From contig CAMVIM010000009.1 of NCBI GenBank assembly GCA_947167515.1, positions 8,522-72,521 of the forward strand: 64,000 bases of DNA, in the 5' to 3' direction. Numbering within the stretch: position 1 is the stretch's first letter; every line of letters begins with the position of its first letter. The notes under the pieces were generated by a model, which saw only the letters and a list, made by a program, of their open reading frames with translations, was not told where the DNA came from and did not search any database. Positions 1,067 through 44,687 of the stretch are shown here, in pieces. The position numbers and the translations under genes were made by a program. The stretch is from an uncultured Prevotellaceae bacterium (GTDB lineage: Bacteria > Bacteroidota > Bacteroidia > Bacteroidales > Bacteroidaceae).

Positions 1067-2395
1067 ATGGAAAATCAAAATGTGGAGCCTGCAGAAGGTA
1101 ATTTAGGCATCATGGTCGTAGGACTTGGTGCCGTTACTTCCACCTTCATGACAGGCGTGTTGATGGCTCGCAAGGGACTTGCCAAGCCAGTGGGTTCAAT
1201 GACTCAGTATGACAAAATTCGTGTTGGAAAGGGTGCTGATAAGAAGTATCTTTCTTATGGAGAGATTGTTCCAATGGCAAAGTTGGATGACATCGTGTTT
1301 GGTGCGTGGGACGTTTATCCAGCCAACGCTTTCCAAAGTGCCATGTATGCAGAGGTGCTTCAAGAGAAAGACATCCTGCCCGTGAAGGACGAACTGGAGA
1401 AGATTGTGCCCATCAAAGCTGCTTTTGACAAAAACTTCGCCAAGCGGCTCGATGGCGACAACGTGAAGGACTGCAAGACCCGTTGGGATATGGTGGAACA
1501 GATTCGTGCCGACATTCGCAAGTTTAAGGCCGAAAACAACTGTGCCCGCATCGTTGTGGCTTGGGCTGCTTCAACCGAGATTTATGTGGAGCCGAACATG
1601 CAGGTACATGACACCTTGGAGCATCTGGAGGCTGCCATGAAGGCTGACGACCGTGTGAACATCGCCCCTTCCATGTGCTACGCATACGCTGCTCTGGCTG
1701 AAGGCGCACCTTTCATCATGGGTGCCCCCAACACCACGGTCGATATTCCAGCCATGTGGGAAATGTCGGAGAAATTAGGCCTGCCCATCGCCGGCAAAGA
1801 CTTCAAGACGGGACAGACACTGGTGAAGTCAGGCTTTGCCCCCATCATCGGCACTCGCTGTCTGGGCCTCAGCGGTTGGTTCTCTACCAACATCCTCGGC
1901 AACCGCGACGGACTTGTGCTCGACGAGCCAGCCAATTTCCGCACGAAGGAAGTCAGCAAACTCTCCACTCTCGAAACCATCCTCAAGCCCGATGCACAGC
2001 CCGACCTCTACGGCCACGGCAACGACACCGACGACCAGTACTACCACAAGGTGCGCATTAACTACTATCCTCCACGCAACGACAACAAGGAGGGATGGGA
2101 TGCCATTGACATCTTCGGTTGGATGAACTACCCCATGCAGATCAAGATTAACTTCCTCTGCCGCGACTCCATCCTTGCCGCACCGCTGCTGCTCGACCTC
2201 TGCCTGCTCAGCGACCTCGCTGCCCGTGCCGGTCGTAGCGGTATCCAGCGTTTCCTCTCCTTCTTCCTCAAGGCGCCCATGCACGACTACACCAAGGGCG
2301 AGGAACCCGTCAACCACCTCTTCCAGCAATACACCATGCTGAAGAACGCCCTCCGCGAAATTGGTGGCTATGAGGCTGACGAGGAGATAGACTGA
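1067..2395 (+). CDS. ino1: myo-inositol-1-phosphate synthase
   Basis: 442 aa. N-terminal Rossmann motif GIMVVGLGAVTST, and overall resemblance to bacterial/archaeal MIPS (..SYGEIVP.., ..NILGNRDG.., ..YYHKVRINYYPPRNDNKEGWD..). Confidence 0.85.
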   Translation: MENQNVEPAEGNLGIMVVGLGAVTSTFMTGVLMARKGLAKPVGSMTQYDKIRVGKGADKKYLSYGEIVPMAKLDDIVFGAWDVYPANAFQSAMYAEVLQEKDILPVKDELEKIVPIKAAFDKNFAKRLDGDNVKDCKTRWDMVEQIRADIRKFKAENNCARIVVAWAASTEIYVEPNMQVHDTLEHLEAAMKADDRVNIAPSMCYAYAALAEGAPFIMGAPNTTVDIPAMWEMSEKLGLPIAGKDFKTGQTLVKSGFAPIIGTRCLGLSGWFSTNILGNRDGLVLDEPANFRTKEVSKLSTLETILKPDAQPDLYGHGNDTDDQYYHKVRINYYPPRNDNKEGWDAIDIFGWMNYPMQIKINFLCRDSILAAPLLLDLCLLSDLAARAGRSGIQRFLSFFLKAPMHDYTKGEEPVNHLFQQYTMLKNALREIGGYEADEEID

Positions 2396-2451
2396 CACTT
2401 CATGTGACAGAGATTGACGAGCGTTGTAAAACTCCATTTTTTAAACAGCGG

Positions 2452-2532
2452 ATTACACAAATTACACGATTTCCACCCCGAGTTGTTCCTTATCAGGAAA
2501 CTCCTTGAGTGGAAATCGTGTAATCGTGTAAT
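2452..2532. terminator. Long hairpin between convergent genes (probable bidirectional terminator)
   Basis: ttacacgatttccac (2462-2476) pairs perfectly with gtggaaatcgtgtaa (2509-2523). A 7-bp attacac extension pairs across a small bulge. The loop holds a second hairpin, gttcc-ttatca-ggaac. Confidence 0.5.
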
Positions 2533-2567
2533 GGACTTCGCTATAGGTTTGTGGAAGGAAACCGTTG

Positions 2568-3110
2568 TTACTGTTCGTTGCCCGCCACAAATAGTACCCG
2601 CGAGCCGCCACGTGCTTCCTCCACAGCCCCACCATCGTTCTTCACACGAATGATGCCCGTGGAGATGTCGCGGCTCTTCGGATAAACGTCGTAGGCACAG
2701 CTGGCATACTGCTTCAGCACAAACTCCTGCAGCTTGCCCCTTCCTCGGTCGGGGTCGGTAAGTGTGGCGTTCAGCACACCCTCCTCGTCCGATTCGGAGA
2801 AAGTCCACACGGCGCCGTTCTCACTCTCGTAGGGAACTCCCAAGATGGGCAGCACATCCTCCATGTCAGACTCGATGTCCTCCTCGCGCTCCATTTGGTC
2901 GTAAACCACATTGCGCATCACAACACTCCCGATGGGGGGCAGGCTGCTCTTCTCTTCCGACGGTTCCTCGGTTTCTTCTGTCTCCCATCCTTGCGAACCG
3001 CCACCCTTTGGCAACAGTCCGTCGCATGCTGTCAGCAGCATCGCTGCCAAGACCATTAAGAAGCCAGCCATCGTGGCAAGCCCCTCACTCCTTCTTTTCC
3101 CTTTTTCCAT
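2568..3110 (-). CDS. Hypothetical lipoprotein
   Basis: I prefer the internal start MEKGKRRSEGLATMAGFLMVLAAMLLTAC (lipobox LLTAC) at 3110. The mature part is acidic. No family recognised. Confidence 0.55.
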   Translation of the reverse strand: MEKGKRRSEGLATMAGFLMVLAAMLLTACDGLLPKGGGSQGWETEETEEPSEEKSSLPPIGSVVMRNVVYDQMEREEDIESDMEDVLPILGVPYESENGAVWTFSESDEEGVLNATLTDPDRGRGKLQEFVLKQYASCAYDVYPKSRDISTGIIRVKNDGGAVEEARGGSRVLFVAGNEQ

Positions 3111-3264
3111 AAGCTTTTGTTTTTTCAGAGGTTTGTATTTGTTCGATTCGAGCATCCCACAGGAATGTTCGTGCACAAATGTACGTACAAAAACTGTACA
3201 CCGCAAATGTTCAGGAGTAAAAAAGCGGAAAAAAGTGGAATTCGCGACAAAAGACATGGCTTTT

Positions 3265-4437
3265 TCACTGCCGAACCAGTACTTGCGTCATGCAGTGGGC
3301 ACAGCCGTTGCCTTCGGTCAGTTCGTCCAGTTTGATGTATTCGACCTTGACTTGGTTGCGCTCCATTTTCGTTCTGAAGTCATCCGACACGTTGTCTGTA
3401 GCCATGATGTGACGCGGGGCGATGCACAGATAGTTGCTGCCAAAGTGCAGCTCGTCTTCATCGCTGAGCGGAATGATCTGTATGCCTCTGCCTTGCAAGA
3501 ACTTGACAAGGCTCCCATTGGTGGTGATTTGTTTGTATTTCAGCCTTCCTGGTGCGCGGGCGTAAATGTCGATAGCAACATAGTTGGCCTCACCTGCTTG
3601 TGCGTTCATGCGGGCAGAGGGCAGGGTGACGAGATGGCTGTCGATGATGTTGAAATAGGTGTCGAGGTGCATCTGTGAAGTGTTGTGGAGCACATCCTTC
3701 ACTACGACGATAGTGTCGTGTCCGATAGCATCTGCCTGTAGCAATTCCTCGATGGCTGCACGGTTGGTGCGCAGACCTTCTCCGATGAATGAGAGTGTGC
3801 CGAAGGGAAGGTAGTCACCGCCTTCCAGATAGGCATTGTTCCCTTCAATCGTATAGGCAATCTTCTCCCCTAACTGTTCATAGCACAGGGCTATCAATGC
3901 CGGCTCATGTTTTCGGTGGACGAGTCGCATCTTGCCCATGACGTGTCCTCGGGGCGTGGTGATGCTTTGGTCTCGTGTGAAGTAGAGTCCTTTCATTGGG
4001 GGCGTATCGAGTATATGGCGAATCAACAGTTCTTTGTCCATCTGACTGATATCTTCCGAGGAAATGGACTGTGCTATTGTTTGCAGGCGGCTCATGGGCG
4101 CATTCCTCAACAAGTCAATCACCTCATGCACCTCTATCCCATTCTTCTGTAGGGCATGGATGAATGCAAGGTGCTCCTCTTTCATCCCTTCCACATCGAA
4201 CTGCTTATGCAACCCGTATGACCCTTGGTTTTCATTACCGGGAGTGTGCATGAGAATGGTTGTTGCGTACATGTACTCAGCCAAATGAGTGTATGTGGCA
4301 TCTGCTGCGACAAAATCCGCCTCATCCTGCTCGTTGTCAGTGCTGCATCCTGCCAAAAGGATGCAGTAAACAAAACACCATGCCCACCAACGGAGGGACA
4401 TGGGTTTCCTTTTATGGCTGGGCGTATGAATCTTCAT
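3265..4437 (-). CDS. Arginine deiminase-family (guanidino-modifying) enzyme with a lipoprotein signal
   Basis: ADI-type motifs occur in order: YFTRDQ, LEGGDY, MHLDTYFN, and a C-terminal GCAHCMTQ with the catalytic Cys. The N-terminus MSLRWWAWCFVYCILLAGC is a lipobox (alternative start at 4401). Confidence 0.7.
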   Translation of the reverse strand: MKIHTPSHKRKPMSLRWWAWCFVYCILLAGCSTDNEQDEADFVAADATYTHLAEYMYATTILMHTPGNENQGSYGLHKQFDVEGMKEEHLAFIHALQKNGIEVHEVIDLLRNAPMSRLQTIAQSISSEDISQMDKELLIRHILDTPPMKGLYFTRDQSITTPRGHVMGKMRLVHRKHEPALIALCYEQLGEKIAYTIEGNNAYLEGGDYLPFGTLSFIGEGLRTNRAAIEELLQADAIGHDTIVVVKDVLHNTSQMHLDTYFNIIDSHLVTLPSARMNAQAGEANYVAIDIYARAPGRLKYKQITTNGSLVKFLQGRGIQIIPLSDEDELHFGSNYLCIAPRHIMATDNVSDDFRTKMERNQVKVEYIKLDELTEGNGCAHCMTQVLVRQ

Positions 4438-12354: not shown

Positions 12355-13740
12355 ATGATTGATTCGAGCATATTGCAAGGCAAGAAAGCGGCGTACTTCA
12401 CGCTGGGCTGCAAACTGAACTTCGCGGAAACAAGCACCGTGGCGCAGCAGTTGGCGCGTTATGGGGTGACGAAGGCGCAGAAAGGTGAGGTGGCTGACAT
12501 CGTGGTGGTGAACACGTGCAGCGTGACCGAGGTGGCTGACCACAAATGTCGGCAGGCGATTCATCGGTTGGTGAAGCAACACCCTGGGGCTTTCGTCGTC
12601 GTCACTGGCTGCTATGCGCAGTTGAAGCCACAGGAAATCGTGGAAACGGAAGGGGTGGACCTCGTGCTGGGGAGTGAGCAGAAGGGGAACATCATACCGA
12701 TGATTATGGAGACCCTCTCCCTAACCCTCCCCCGTAATGGGGAGGGAACCCATCCGGTGAGTTCCTCAACGGCAAAGAACCCGAAAGGCCTCCCTCCCCA
12801 TTATGGGGGAGGGTCGGGAAGAGGGTCTTTTTCCCCTGCTTGTTCCCGTGGCGACCGCACTCGCTATTTCCTGAAGGTGCAGGACGGCTGCAACTACTAC
12901 TGCACCTATTGCACCATCCCGATTGCCCGTGGACGAAGCCGCAACGGGAGCATTGCCTCGCTGGTGGAGCAAGCCGAAGAGGTGGCCCGCGAGGGGGGCA
13001 AGGAGATTGTCATCACGGGTGTGAACATCGGTGACTTCGGACGCTCCACGGGAGAGACCTTCTTCGACCTCGTGAAGGCACTCGATGGGGTGGAGGGCAT
13101 TGAACGCTACCGCATCTCGAGCATCGAGCCGAACCTGCTGACCGATGAAATCATCGAGTACTGTGTGCAGTCGAGGGCTTTCATGCCGCATTTCCACATC
13201 CCCTTGCAGAGTGGTTGCGATGAGGTGTTGAGGCTTATGCACCGCAAGTACGACACAGCCCTTTTCGCCCATAAGATAGAGAAGATACGCTCCGTGATGC
13301 CCGATGCTTTCATCGGTGTGGATGTCATCGTAGGCACTCGTGGCGAGACACAGGAGTATTTTGAGAAAGCCTATGACTTCATGCAGCGTGTCGATGTATC
13401 CCAGTATCACGTCTTCTCCTACTCCGAACGGGCTGGCACCAAAGCCTTGGAAATCCCTCATGTGGTCACGCCGCAGGAAAAGCACCAGCGCAGTCAGCGT
13501 GTCCTCGCTCTTTCGGCGCAGAAGACTCACGACTTCTACAGCCGGTTCATCGGCACCACGCGGTCTGTGCTGCTCGAACATGCCTCGCCTCGCAAGCCTC
13601 TGATGAACGGCTTTACCGACAACTACATCCGTGTGGAAGTGCCCAACCAACCTCACCTCGACAACCAGATTGTGCCAGTGCGATTGGATGGATTTAACGA
13701 AGCAGGGGATGCCTTGTGTGGGGAAATGATTAACAAATGA
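12355..13740 (+). CDS. mtaB: tRNA t6A37 methylthiotransferase (radical SAM MTTase)
   Basis: N-terminal MTTase domain (TLGCKLNFAETS, VVNTCSVT), radical-SAM CNYYCTYC and a C-terminal TRAM-like end. An extra palindromic element lies in the inter-domain linker. Confidence 0.9.
   Translation: MIDSSILQGKKAAYFTLGCKLNFAETSTVAQQLARYGVTKAQKGEVADIVVVNTCSVTEVADHKCRQAIHRLVKQHPGAFVVVTGCYAQLKPQEIVETEGVDLVLGSEQKGNIIPMIMETLSLTLPRNGEGTHPVSSSTAKNPKGLPPHYGGGSGRGSFSPACSRGDRTRYFLKVQDGCNYYCTYCTIPIARGRSRNGSIASLVEQAEEVAREGGKEIVITGVNIGDFGRSTGETFFDLVKALDGVEGIERYRISSIEPNLLTDEIIEYCVQSRAFMPHFHIPLQSGCDEVLRLMHRKYDTALFAHKIEKIRSVMPDAFIGVDVIVGTRGETQEYFEKAYDFMQRVDVSQYHVFSYSERAGTKALEIPHVVTPQEKHQRSQRVLALSAQKTHDFYSRFIGTTRSVLLEHASPRKPLMNGFTDNYIRVEVPNQPHLDNQIVPVRLDGFNEAGDALCGEMINK
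12710..12828. repeat. 119-bp palindromic (MITE/REP-like) element translated in-frame within mtaB
   Basis: The 38-nt arms 12710-12747 and 12791-12828 are reverse complements at 34/38 positions. Each arm also holds its own ccctcccc/ggggaggg hairpin. The element encodes ETLSLTLPRNGEGTHPVSSSTAKNPKGLPPHYGGGSGRGS. Confidence 0.8.
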
Positions 13741-42344: not shown

Positions 42345-44687
42345 ATGGCTGATTATTTTGATATAGCATCGCAAGAAGATGTGTTTTCCTCCTATGCCGC
42401 AGAGAATGGAATGCAGGAGCACAACCGCGAAATGAACTTGGCGTGGCAGTTTGTGACAGGCACGAACGTGTCGGTCTTTCTGACGGGTAAGGCAGGAACG
42501 GGGAAGACAACGTTTCTGCGGACACTGAGGGAACGGACGCCCAAACGGATGGTGGTGCTGGCTCCTACGGGGGTGGCTGCCATCAATGCACAGGGACAAA
42601 CCATCCACTCGTTCTTCCAGTTGCCCTTTGGCCCCATCGTGCCGGGCATGACACAGGGAGAGCGCAAGAGCCACTTCAAGATGAGCAAGGAGAAGAAGAA
42701 TCTCATCAAGACGTTGGACCTGCTGGTGATTGACGAAATCTCGATGGTCAGATGCGACGTGCTCGATGCGGTGGATCAGGAACTGCGAAAATATCGTGAC
42801 CGCAGCAAGCCGTTTGGAGGTGTGCAGCTGCTGCTCATTGGCGACTTGCAGCAGTTGGCTCCTGTGGCTCAAGAACGGGAATGGTCGCTGCTTTCCCCAT
42901 ACTATTCAACTCCCTATTTCTTTGGCAGCAAGGCCTTGCAGCAGATTCAGTATGTGACGATTGAACTGATGCACATCTACCGTCAGCAGGATGCGGCCTT
43001 CATCGGTCTTTTGGCGAAAATTCGCAATAATCAGGTGGACACGCCTACGATGAATGCCCTCAATGCAAGGTTTGTGCCTGATTTCATGCCACCGAAGAAT
43101 GAGGATTGGATTCGTCTGACCACACATAATCGCATGGCTCAAGCCTACAATGAAACTCAACTTGATGCCTTGAAGACGAGGGAGGTGGCCTTCATGGCAG
43201 AGATTCACAAGAACTTCCCTGAAAGCAGCTATCCTGCCGAAGAACGCCTCGTGCTGAAAGAGGGTGCGCAGGTGATGTTCATCAAGAATGACCCCAATCC
43301 TGGCAAGGAATACTACAACGGAAAGATTGGTACGGTGAAGGGATTTGTGTGGAACGATGACAGCGACGAACGGCTGATTGTCGTGCATTGCAAGGAGGAT
43401 GACCGCATGATTTATGTGCCTCAGCTGACATGGGAAAACACCAAGTATGTGATTGACGAGGAAACAAAGGAGATTCGTGAGGAGGTGGAAGGCACCTTCA
43501 GACAATATCCTTTGCGACTCGCATGGGCCATCACGGTACACAAGAGCCAAGGCCTGACGTTCGACCATGCTGTGCTCGACATCACCGACTCCTTCACGCA
43601 TGGGCAGGTGTATGTGGCACTGAGCCGTTGCCGCACCCTCGAAGGCATGGTGCTGGCGCGTCCGTTGATGGCAGGGTCGGTCATCACCGATGCCTCGGTG
43701 AACGCCTATATTGACCGCGAACTGGCGGAGGCGCAGCAGACGGAGGGTAAATTGCCGCAGATGAAGTATGACTATTTCATGACGTTGCTCAACGAACTTT
43801 TCGATTTCCAGACGTTGAGGCATGACACACAGTATCTCTACAGGGTGGTGAACGAGCACCTTTATTCCTCCTATCCCGACTATCTTTCGACCCTTCAGCA
43901 GGTGCTTCCCGAAGTGGATGCCCAAGTGATGGCTGTTGCCGTGAAGTTCCGTCAGCAGTATGTGCTGCTCATGCAGCAGAGCGGTGCTTCCTTTGCCCGC
44001 AATGAGCATCTGCAAGAACGGCTGAAGGCAGCCATGGGTTATTTTGACGATAAGCTTCATGAACTTTTCGACCCCGTGGTGGCTGCCTCGAAAGTGAACA
44101 TCAACAACAAGCAGGTGGTCACTCAATACAACAATGCCCTTGATGCTTTCATGCTCTCGCTGAAACTGAAAATCGGTGTGTTCAGCCGTCTGCAACCCAC
44201 AGGCTTCAATGTACGGGACTTTCTCAATGCCAAGGCAAAAGCGGTGCTGGATGAAGTGAAGACCCTCTCCCCATCCCTCTCTCATCATGGGGAGGAATAC
44301 CGTCCGGATGGCTCTCCCCGTAGAGGGGATGATGTCCGCAGGACAGAGAAAGTCTCTAAGAACAGGACCGAGAGAGCCTCTAAGAAGGAGAAGGTGGATA
44401 CCAAACGCGAGACCCTCAAACTCTTTCTCGACGGCAAGCCCATCAAGGAAATTGCAGCTCAACGTTCCCTCACCGTTGGCACCATCGAGAACCACCTCGC
44501 TCATTTTGTGGAACTGGGCGAACTGAAAGTGGACGATGTGGTGAGTACGCCCCATCAGAAAATCATCCGTGGCATCGTCAAGTCCTTCAGCAAAGCCTAT
44601 TCACTCTCCGAGGTGAAAAACCTCCTCCCCAGCGACTACACCTATGCGGAAATCAAACTGGTGATTGCGGACATGAACAAAAAGTGA
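42345..44687 (+). CDS. PIF1/RecD-like superfamily-1 helicase with a C-terminal HTH domain
   Basis: Walker A (LTGKAGTGKTT), DEISMV, GDLQQLAPV and TVHKSQGLTFD, with a C-terminal helicase-HTH-like region (TVGTIENHLAHFVELGEL). Confidence 0.85.
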   Translation: MADYFDIASQEDVFSSYAAENGMQEHNREMNLAWQFVTGTNVSVFLTGKAGTGKTTFLRTLRERTPKRMVVLAPTGVAAINAQGQTIHSFFQLPFGPIVPGMTQGERKSHFKMSKEKKNLIKTLDLLVIDEISMVRCDVLDAVDQELRKYRDRSKPFGGVQLLLIGDLQQLAPVAQEREWSLLSPYYSTPYFFGSKALQQIQYVTIELMHIYRQQDAAFIGLLAKIRNNQVDTPTMNALNARFVPDFMPPKNEDWIRLTTHNRMAQAYNETQLDALKTREVAFMAEIHKNFPESSYPAEERLVLKEGAQVMFIKNDPNPGKEYYNGKIGTVKGFVWNDDSDERLIVVHCKEDDRMIYVPQLTWENTKYVIDEETKEIREEVEGTFRQYPLRLAWAITVHKSQGLTFDHAVLDITDSFTHGQVYVALSRCRTLEGMVLARPLMAGSVITDASVNAYIDRELAEAQQTEGKLPQMKYDYFMTLLNELFDFQTLRHDTQYLYRVVNEHLYSSYPDYLSTLQQVLPEVDAQVMAVAVKFRQQYVLLMQQSGASFARNEHLQERLKAAMGYFDDKLHELFDPVVAASKVNINNKQVVTQYNNALDAFMLSLKLKIGVFSRLQPTGFNVRDFLNAKAKAVLDEVKTLSPSLSHHGEEYRPDGSPRRGDDVRRTEKVSKNRTERASKKEKVDTKRETLKLFLDGKPIKEIAAQRSLTVGTIENHLAHFVELGELKVDDVVSTPHQKIIRGIVKSFSKAYSLSEVKNLLPSDYTYAEIKLVIADMNKK
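44260..44333. repeat. Degenerate second copy of the mtaB palindromic element, in-frame inside the helicase linker
   Basis: agaccctctccccatccctctctcatcatggggaggaataccgtccgg resembles the left arm plus centre of the 12710 element (agaccctctccctaaccctcccccgtaatggggagggaacccatccgg). Confidence 0.45.

Follow-up and report, generated by a model that had tools for sequence, protein, structure and literature searches.

An in-frame palindromic element in mtaB of an uncultured Prevotellaceae bacterium belongs to a dispersed family of hairpin-forming repeats in Bacteroidales

In an uncultured Prevotellaceae bacterium, the tRNA-modification gene mtaB contains a 119-bp palindrome that leaves the reading frame open, which raises the question of what this DNA is and how it came to lie inside an enzyme gene. 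The gene was found in a stretch of 64,000 nt, referred to here as the window (contig CAMVIM010000009.1 of assembly GCA_947167515.1, positions 8,522-72,521 of the forward strand; Table 1). A first-pass annotation of the window had described two 38-nt arms that are reverse complements around a centre and also fold on themselves, lie between the N-terminal methylthiotransferase and radical-SAM parts of MtaB and encode a Gly/Pro/Ser-rich peptide. It had interpreted them as a mobile or formerly mobile repeat tolerated in a flexible linker, parallel to the palindromic elements of Rickettsia. The description of the structure was borne out. BLAST of the element against the window paired the arms 12710-12747 and 12791-12828 at 34 of 38 positions, and a repeat finder extended the pairing to 48-nt arms (12710-12757 and 12781-12828, 40/48). 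The palindrome is nested, each arm having its own CCCTCCCC/GGGGAGGG hairpin, namely CCCTCCCCCGTAATGGGGAGGG at 12725-12746 and CCCTCCCCATTATGGGGGAGGG at 12792-12813, and the pattern of these inner hairpins was matched in none of 100 shuffled sequences. The RNA of the element region has a predicted folding energy of -85 kcal/mol (z = -7.3), which none of 200 shuffles reached. Rfam 15 in gathering mode gave no match in the window, and its E-value mode returned only generic microRNA-precursor hairpin matches far under the thresholds.

Pfam assigns UPF0004 to MtaB residues 12-106 and Radical_SAM to residues 174-342. The element lies in the linker between them and encodes residues 119-158, ETLSLTLPRNGEGTHPVSSSTAKNPKGLPPHYGGGSGRGS, in frame, as had been described. 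In an AlphaFold model built from a 22-sequence alignment, both domains are folded, and residues 124-167 appear as coil with no secondary structure and a predicted local distance difference test score (pLDDT) below 50, a confidence that the shallow alignment also lowers. The modelled insert fits a flexible loop between folded domains, the location that the first-pass annotation had expected.

The palindrome is not confined to mtaB. A scan of species-representative genomes with the query CCCTCCCCATNANGGGGGAGGG returned at least 120 stretches with a match, about 80 of which were rumen or gut metagenome-assembled genomes (MAGs) of Bacteroidaceae, Prevotellaceae or Bacteroidales that share the flanks of the repeat unit. 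The source animals were goat, roe deer, buffalo, sheep, reindeer and horse. At least 10 loci came from a single MAG, the most per MAG among the matches listed, with exact cores only being counted. A loose regular expression for the inner hairpin found more copies in the loci of relatives, both within and near a large gene, and inside a glycosyltransferase gene. From the oriented Bacteroidales stretches, a consensus unit of about 47 nt was derived, (AAAGACY)CCGCATGGTCT-CCCTCCCCATTACGGGGGAGGG-TTGGGGAGAGGGTCT, in which the 5' segment CCGCATGGTCT is conserved and is followed by a G+C hairpin, CCCTCCCC-loop-GGGGGAGGG, and then by the G-rich tail TTGGGGAGAGGGTCT. An nhmmer profile of this unit, searched against the window and the collected loci of relatives, gave 205 matches. 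Three of them lie in the window, comprising the two arms of the mtaB element (12705-12770, minus strand, and 12767-12833, plus strand; E of about 1e-17) and a further match at 44254-44318 (E = 1.6e-10).

In every doublet of neighbouring matches the minus-strand unit stands on the left and the plus-strand unit on the right, therefore the doublets are inverted pairs with their tails pointing outwards. Thirty doublets were collected, which typically measure 117-124 nt, with some of 150-200 nt and an overall range of 89-203 nt; their termini are AGACCCTCTC...GAGAGGGTCT and their spacers vary in sequence and length. Single units with one terminus are as common as doublets and equally conserved. Besides subtypes A and B there is an arm variant C with two small hairpins (AGACCCTCTCTGTCCTGCGGACATCTCCCCCGTAATGGGGAGAG...), and the combinations seen were A+A, A+C and B+B. 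Since C arms combine freely with A arms, what is conserved is the local hairpins and the termini and not a perfect long palindrome. Neither a target-site duplication nor a conserved flanking target was seen at the 30 doublets. The mtaB palindrome is therefore one copy of a multi-copy dispersed family with subtypes A and B and arm variant C. The further copies that the first-pass annotation had proposed to count exist, with a second one in the window and dozens in related MAGs, about half of them in frame in unrelated housekeeping genes.

We then compared MtaB homologs at 82-94% identity, which fall into length classes, using a protein alignment and the DNA of eight alleles. Most of the database matches, with 435-438 aa, have an empty site of 36 nt encoding GAHTVKTADIR(T), as do loci L005 and L126. 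The filled alleles differ in what they hold: a subtype A doublet (the window, L001 and L002), a single A unit (L127), two tandem units (L004), a subtype B doublet with the inner hairpin CCCTCCC-TACA-GGGAGGG (L003), or a subtype B doublet in which both inner loops are altered in concert (CTGAAT / ATTCAG; L128). Only a subset of close relatives thus carries the palindromic DNA, in several versions. The 36 native nt, about 12 linker codons, are absent from every filled allele, indicating that native sequence at mtaB was replaced and that the event was no clean insertion. In L003 and L127 the end of the element is followed by a short extra (CA)TGGTCT. At its 5' end the mtaB gene of the window is 100% identical to that of L001, whereas over its 3' third it shares 99% identity with L126, an empty allele, the value for part of the 3' region being 98-99%; such mosaic alleles indicate that frequent homologous recombination between strains moves the alleles around. 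The mtaB site is a recurrent hotspot with subtype turnover. Five of the MtaB homologs (P0005, P0008, P0034, P0035 and P0091) begin with MMQRYDYFSYLCTQSETE..., which puts their start 18 residues upstream of the conserved MIDSSILQ, probably owing to mis-called start codons that add a spurious length class.

Turnover was also seen at other sites. Presence or absence of the element is polymorphic at the mtaB site, four sites in mfd, the MutS2 site (L069 versus L087), a glycosyltransferase site and a helicase site. At the second Mfd site, L001 and L127 have an A/C element and L003 has a B element, the latter enclosed by remnants of the termini of an earlier element, AGACCCTCTC-AC-[B]-GGGTCT. At the fourth Mfd site, L001 and L003 hold a B element with a duplicated left terminus, L128 a single C unit and L126 a decayed remnant, and empty versions of the site occur as well. 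Terminal stutters were also seen in L105, L114 and L117. Some variants are specific to a genome or a lineage. An odd B variant (...SLSPLGETGKGSG...) is shared by the glycosyltransferase gene of L004 and the mtaB allele P0015, two different genes of one lineage. The loop reads ATAAA in 12/12 units of two Prevotellaceae MAGs, and ATTAC or ATTAT in units from elsewhere. Identity between units is 87.5% within genomes versus 82.1% between genomes. The stems appear to be maintained: in a set of 30 distinct C arms, pairing is kept in 97% of the cells, and one pair is UA in 24 arms and CG in six with no half-changed copy. The covariation score of the C arms was above all 500 shuffles and all slid controls. 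From the polymorphism, the genome-specific variants and the nested termini we infer that the family has been mobile. The earlier view of a mobile or formerly mobile repeat in a flexible linker is supported by the other copies and by the polymorphic site, at which orthologs share no homologous peptide; the low-pLDDT linker fits it, and it has to be amended with respect to the missing native codons.

To describe the coding context, 111 family units were compared with random 66-nt segments from the same loci. Seventy-six units (68%) lie wholly within a stop-free frame of at least 250 codons versus 77% of the random segments, and 56 units (50%) lie deep in open reading frames (ORFs) of at least 250 aa, defined as having at least 40 codons on both sides of the unit within such a frame, versus 63% of the random segments. 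The family thus avoids coding sequence only mildly. The remaining copies include intergenic ones, and placement is roughly random relative to genes. The hosts are functionally unrelated proteins that keep intact sets of Pfam domains. The element stands just ahead of the anticodon-binding domain in LeuRS, between MutS_V and Smr in MutS2, between domains in a GltD-like protein and between the helicase core and HTH_40 in the PIF1-like helicase of the window; in a topoisomerase and in ThrA it forms loops inside the domain envelope. The mfd genes of L001 (2548-6177) and L003 (2759-6394) contain three or four separate in-frame copies that add about 100 residues, and there are fewer copies or none in L005, L126, L127 and L128. 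No domains are given for the Mfd proteins of L001 and L003 in the precomputed Pfam annotation, whereas the shorter orthologs are annotated normally, so the inserts may degrade automatic annotation. The second copy in the window, in the linker of the helicase, is a degenerate doublet that combines an A arm with a C arm. Thirteen helicase orthologs have a short Lys/Glu-rich linker (e.g. VEDGKVKV..KKVKKEKVEKP) and no element, and the closest relative, P0127 (82% identity), has a related element variant at the linker.

The 56 deep units are spread very unevenly over the possible frames. In antisense orientation, 29 of them would be read as ..TLSPTLP(R/H)NGEGDHA.. and four as ..RPSPQPSPIMGRE.., and none uses the antisense frame that contains TAA. 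In sense orientation the readings are ..GLPPHYGGGLGRGS.. (11/56), ..SLPITGEGRGEGL.. (8/56) and ..SPSPLRGRVGERV.. (4/56). Because the frame is kept, the frame with a stop is avoided and there is a frame bias at the peptide level, the copies appear to be translated into a Gly/Pro/Ser-rich, probably disordered loop and would persist where such a loop is tolerated. Removal of the element from the mRNA or the protein was considered as the alternative to translation, and on the same three observations it was rejected as the default.

Table 1. Positions of the mtaB element, its host gene and the second copy in the window.
Feature	Position	Strand	Details and basis
Host gene mtaB, tRNA t6A37 methylthiotransferase	12355..13740	+	461 aa; Pfam, MtaB-named homologs, protein and DNA alignments
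Full element, inverted doublet of two subtype A units, 119 nt	12710..12828		Termini AGACCCTCTC...AAGAGGGTCT; inverted repeat and two nhmmer unit matches; 30 doublets elsewhere share the architecture
Left arm, one unit, antisense	12710..12757	-	Inner hairpin 12725-12746; predicted reading TLSLTLPRNGEG, the commonest frame of the family
Central spacer, apex of the long hairpin	12758..12780		Variable between copies
Right arm, one unit, sense	12781..12828	+	Inner hairpin 12792-12813; predicted reading GLPPHYGGGSGRGS; G-rich strand GGGGGAGGGTCGGGAAGAGGG with four G-runs
PIF1-like helicase with HTH_40	42345..44687	+	Pfam
Second copy, degenerate doublet of an A arm and a C arm, 96 nt	44260..44355		In frame in the helicase linker; predicted reading KTLSPSLSHHGEEYRPDGSPRRGDDVRRTEKV; nhmmer E = 1.6e-10

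How the family relates to known repeats was examined next. RPE-1 to RPE-10, the Rickettsia palindromic elements (RPEs) of Ogata et al. (2000, 2002), are palindromic repeats lying in frame in genes, as summarised in PMC10969869 and PMC3733652. A 2024 review of transposable elements of the miniature inverted-repeat type (MITEs) still treats them as the exceptional in-frame case, with similar elements elsewhere only being speculated about (PMC10969869). Like RPEs, the family consists of 100-150 bp palindromic repeats with many copies per genome, often in frame in unrelated housekeeping genes that are left intact; the encoded peptide is conserved in both and presumably tolerated on the surface of the protein, and no transposase is known for either. 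RPEs, however, belong to Alphaproteobacteria with reduced intracellular genomes, whereas the mtaB-element family occurs in Bacteroidota that are free-living gut anaerobes, and the latter is G+C-rich with nested local hairpins, has a unit of about 47 nt that is also found singly and has subtypes that replace each other at one site. The Rickettsia parallel drawn by the first-pass annotation holds at the level of behaviour: we set the family beside RPEs by description and, the host phylum being different, do not file it as an RPE, and the 119-bp element is more precisely a REPIN-like doublet of the 47-nt unit.

The second comparison is with repetitive extragenic palindromic sequences (REPs) and their doublets (REPINs). 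Both groups have a short G+C hairpin unit that occurs singly or as inverted doublets foldable into a long hairpin, have no target-site duplication and show several subfamilies per genome, genome-specific variants and compensatory stem changes. Intragenic GTAG/CGTC REPs have been described in several species, often in repair and tRNA-synthetase genes (Di Nocera et al. 2013, PMC3733652), therefore in-frame REPs are not unique to Rickettsia. The Bacteroidetes-specific TnpA(Y1) transposases described by Quentin et al. (2018, PMC6006769) include subclass 2.4, in which REPs lie in frame inside the transposase gene itself, and subclass 2.6, which is flanked by atypical secondary structures lacking GT[AG]G, with copies elsewhere in the genome. 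The likeness thus extends to in-frame REPs in repair genes, tRNA-synthetase genes and even tnpA-REP. Unlike REPs, which carry a GT[AG]G/CGTC tag at the foot of the stem, the family has no such tag at either stem foot of the consensus ...GGTCT|CCCTCCCC...GGGGAGGG|TTGG..., GTAG being found in subtype B only inside the loop. Half to two thirds of its units lie in long ORFs, whereas intragenic REPs are a minority; its unit has a long conserved tail beyond the hairpin; and no cognate REP-associated tyrosine transposase (RAYT) was found in the 1.1 Mb of loci. The family is new, and the kind of behaviour is already known. In agreement with the first-pass annotation, no prior description of this Bacteroidales family was found in the full-text literature searched, whose coverage is incomplete.

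Taken together, we consider it probable (about 0.75) that the mtaB element is one member of a repeat family, hairpin-forming and non-autonomous, that is dispersed among Prevotella-like Bacteroidales of the rumen and gut and is a selfish DNA of the REPIN/RPE kind. Such a family would spread for its own sake, and the surviving copies would be those whose translated loop is harmless, which would enrich them in loops and linkers and in the frames that do less harm. For the spread itself we favour, at somewhat less than even odds, an HUH/Y1 (RAYT-like) transposase that would recognise hairpins in single-stranded DNA as for REP/REPIN, because of the missing target-site duplication, the single units with one terminus, the REPIN-like doublets and the maintained stems. 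The subtype swaps may have arisen by ectopic gene conversion anchored in the shared termini or by re-insertion at occupied sites, and the native codons may have been lost at insertion or later, once the native linker had become redundant.

Several points weigh against this account. From 5 to 18 native codons, often about 11-12, are gone at every filled site examined (mtaB, Mfd sites 2-4, MutS2, the L004 glycosyltransferase and the helicase), which argues that none of the events was a clean insertion. With 10-20% divergence between the empty and the filled alleles that were compared, their exact limits cannot be placed. Canonical REPs have a GT[AG]G or CGTC tag, which is missing from the units. 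The transposase searches covered about 1.1 Mb of collected locus DNA, in which neither tblastn with an approximate IS200 TnpA query nor a scan for the RAYT motif HuH...Y[IV]xxNP gave a match, and a single-copy gene could easily lie outside these loci. The covariation amounts to two varying base pairs in related sequences. The unit and frame counts include orthologous sites of related MAGs, so these statistics are not fully independent and their p-values serve as a guide only, and the case for translation comes from frame statistics rather than protein data.

Two extensions of the selfish-DNA account are more speculative. The family might be an active REPIN-like replicator of Bacteroidota, mobilised by one of the Bacteroidetes-specific Y1/RAYT subclasses for atypical hairpins and colonising coding DNA almost as freely as intergenic DNA, unlike all described REPINs; we regard this as improbable. 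Were it true, new disordered Gly/Pro/Ser linkers would continually be written into, and swapped in, essential proteins of abundant rumen and gut bacteria. Co-option of the structure, prone to form a hairpin or a G-quadruplex, is conceivable too, e.g. in pausing ribosomes where domains meet.

Among the alternatives, a classical MITE would be an internally deleted insertion sequence (IS) with 10-nt terminal inverted repeats (AGACCCTCTC / GAGAGGGTCT) moved by a DDE transposase in trans. Bacterial MITEs include Correia elements, ERIC and BrickBuilt of Porphyromonas gingivalis; like these small, non-autonomous elements, the family has short terminal inverted repeats, a size of about 120 bp and presence/absence polymorphism at several sites, and MITEs sometimes form in-frame fusions. 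However, a MITE would not be expected to lack a target-site duplication in all 30 doublets, nor to have single units with one terminus that are as common and as conserved as the doublets. A search of unit pairs lying 250-5000 bp from each other in the 1.1 Mb of loci revealed no parent IS with shared termini, and the free mixing of arms suits an element built from units better than one built from terminal inverted repeats. In a census of 183,232 genomes, 90.4% of bacterial MITEs were intergenic (PMC11602168), whereas this family is not mainly intergenic. A MITE origin is accordingly unlikely.

A functional module selected by the host appears very unlikely. It would be useful as an mRNA hairpin, a hairpin/G-quadruplex switch or a Gly/Pro/Ser peptide, acting, for example, in ribosome pausing at domain boundaries or as a flexible linker, and its copies would be spread by recombination. 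In its favour, copies are often found where domains meet, the hairpins show conservation together with compensatory changes and are predicted to be very stable in RNA, a single frame is strongly preferred, and four G-runs are present on the G-rich strand in subtypes A and B. The last of these does not extend to arm C, which has no G-quadruplex motif, and the frame bias and the linker location would follow from purifying selection against harmful insertions alone. Against such a module, even close relatives differ at the sites, the element is absent from most orthologs, decayed remnants exist, the host genes are functionally unrelated, and intergenic copies occur with a placement that is roughly random relative to genes. 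An ancestral MtaB linker peptide whose DNA is self-complementary by chance, for which only the in-frame position speaks, is refuted and practically without probability: most orthologs have an empty site and no homologous peptide, further copies with DNA more than 80% identical lie in unrelated genes and also between genes, and alleles of the one site differ in subtype.

Protein-coding palindromic repeats have so far been seen as a peculiarity of Rickettsia, together with a few scattered intragenic REPs. An abundant family in free-living, ecologically dominant Prevotella-like bacteria of rumen and gut would show the phenomenon to be general and not tied to reduced intracellular genomes. Its many in-frame insertions in essential enzymes (LeuRS, MutS2, Mfd, topoisomerase, ThrA and MtaB) would amount to a natural experiment on which loops of 16-40 residues are tolerated, and the family offers a way into the still uncharacterised Bacteroidetes Y1/RAYT subclasses. 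In practice, such repeats would inflate or fragment protein clusters, create length classes within ortholog groups and promote recombination and breaks in metagenome assemblies, and they could serve as strain markers.

The structure of the unit has a further aspect. The G-rich strand of subtype A (GGGGGAGGGTTGGGGAGAGGG; 12792-12828 in the window and the unit consensus) and that of subtype B (GGGAGGGTGAGGGGAGGG) have four G-runs that constitute a canonical G-quadruplex motif; the hairpin sequesters the first two of these runs, and the motif is missing from arm C. Hairpin and G-quadruplex could therefore compete on the G-rich strand of subtypes A and B, as judged from the motif.

The 22-nt hairpin core also occurs once per locus outside Bacteroidales (e.g. 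L007, L012, L014, L030, L064, L083, L093 and L103), in Alphaproteobacteria, Chloroflexi, Planctomycetes, Nitrospirae, Desulfobacca, Schekmanbacteria and Daejeonella. There it has a different recurring flank, CACCCCCACCC(T/A)AA-CCCTCCCCATCAAGGGGGAGGG, or the hairpin is followed by TTGGGAGGGGG. These look-alikes combine the hairpin with two extra C- or G-runs, a resemblance to the Bacteroidales unit beyond chance, and Rfam gave no family and nothing relevant on these cross-phylum loci. Among 2.9 million viral contigs, two have subtype A with its tail and none has subtype B, and phages as the main vector were rejected on this count; they are at most occasional carriers that could act as vectors. 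One viral contig (L129, IMGVR_UViG_3300028454_000589) carries a phage head module with terminase-, scaffold/protease- and capsid-like ORFs, and three intergenic units at 243-415 and 3728-3763.

At the protein level, a word-indexed search with the 40-aa low-complexity peptide yielded no candidate, and an exhaustive search of cluster representatives yielded only two MtaB fragments, one small element-containing ORF and two unrelated matches; the query is too short for a sensitive search, and clusters at 50% identity hide members that bear the insert. One of the unrelated matches is a repeat protein. The other (P0124) is a predicted protein of 158 aa that contains ISPHFGGGSGLK five times at regular spacing and looks like a translated CRISPR array or other DNA repeat.

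Distant inverted unit pairs were also inspected for a transposase and led to a leu operon; a gene bracketed by units in L091 was considered as a candidate and rejected, as it is leuC. In the operon of this MAG (1685-3766, with leuA, leuC and a leuD-like gene), units occupy the two intergenic gaps, and a further one lies in the first codons of leuC (MKEYENTNKPDGSLPIMGE...). Copies thus seem to occur in 5' regions as well, with a possible effect on the initiation of translation.

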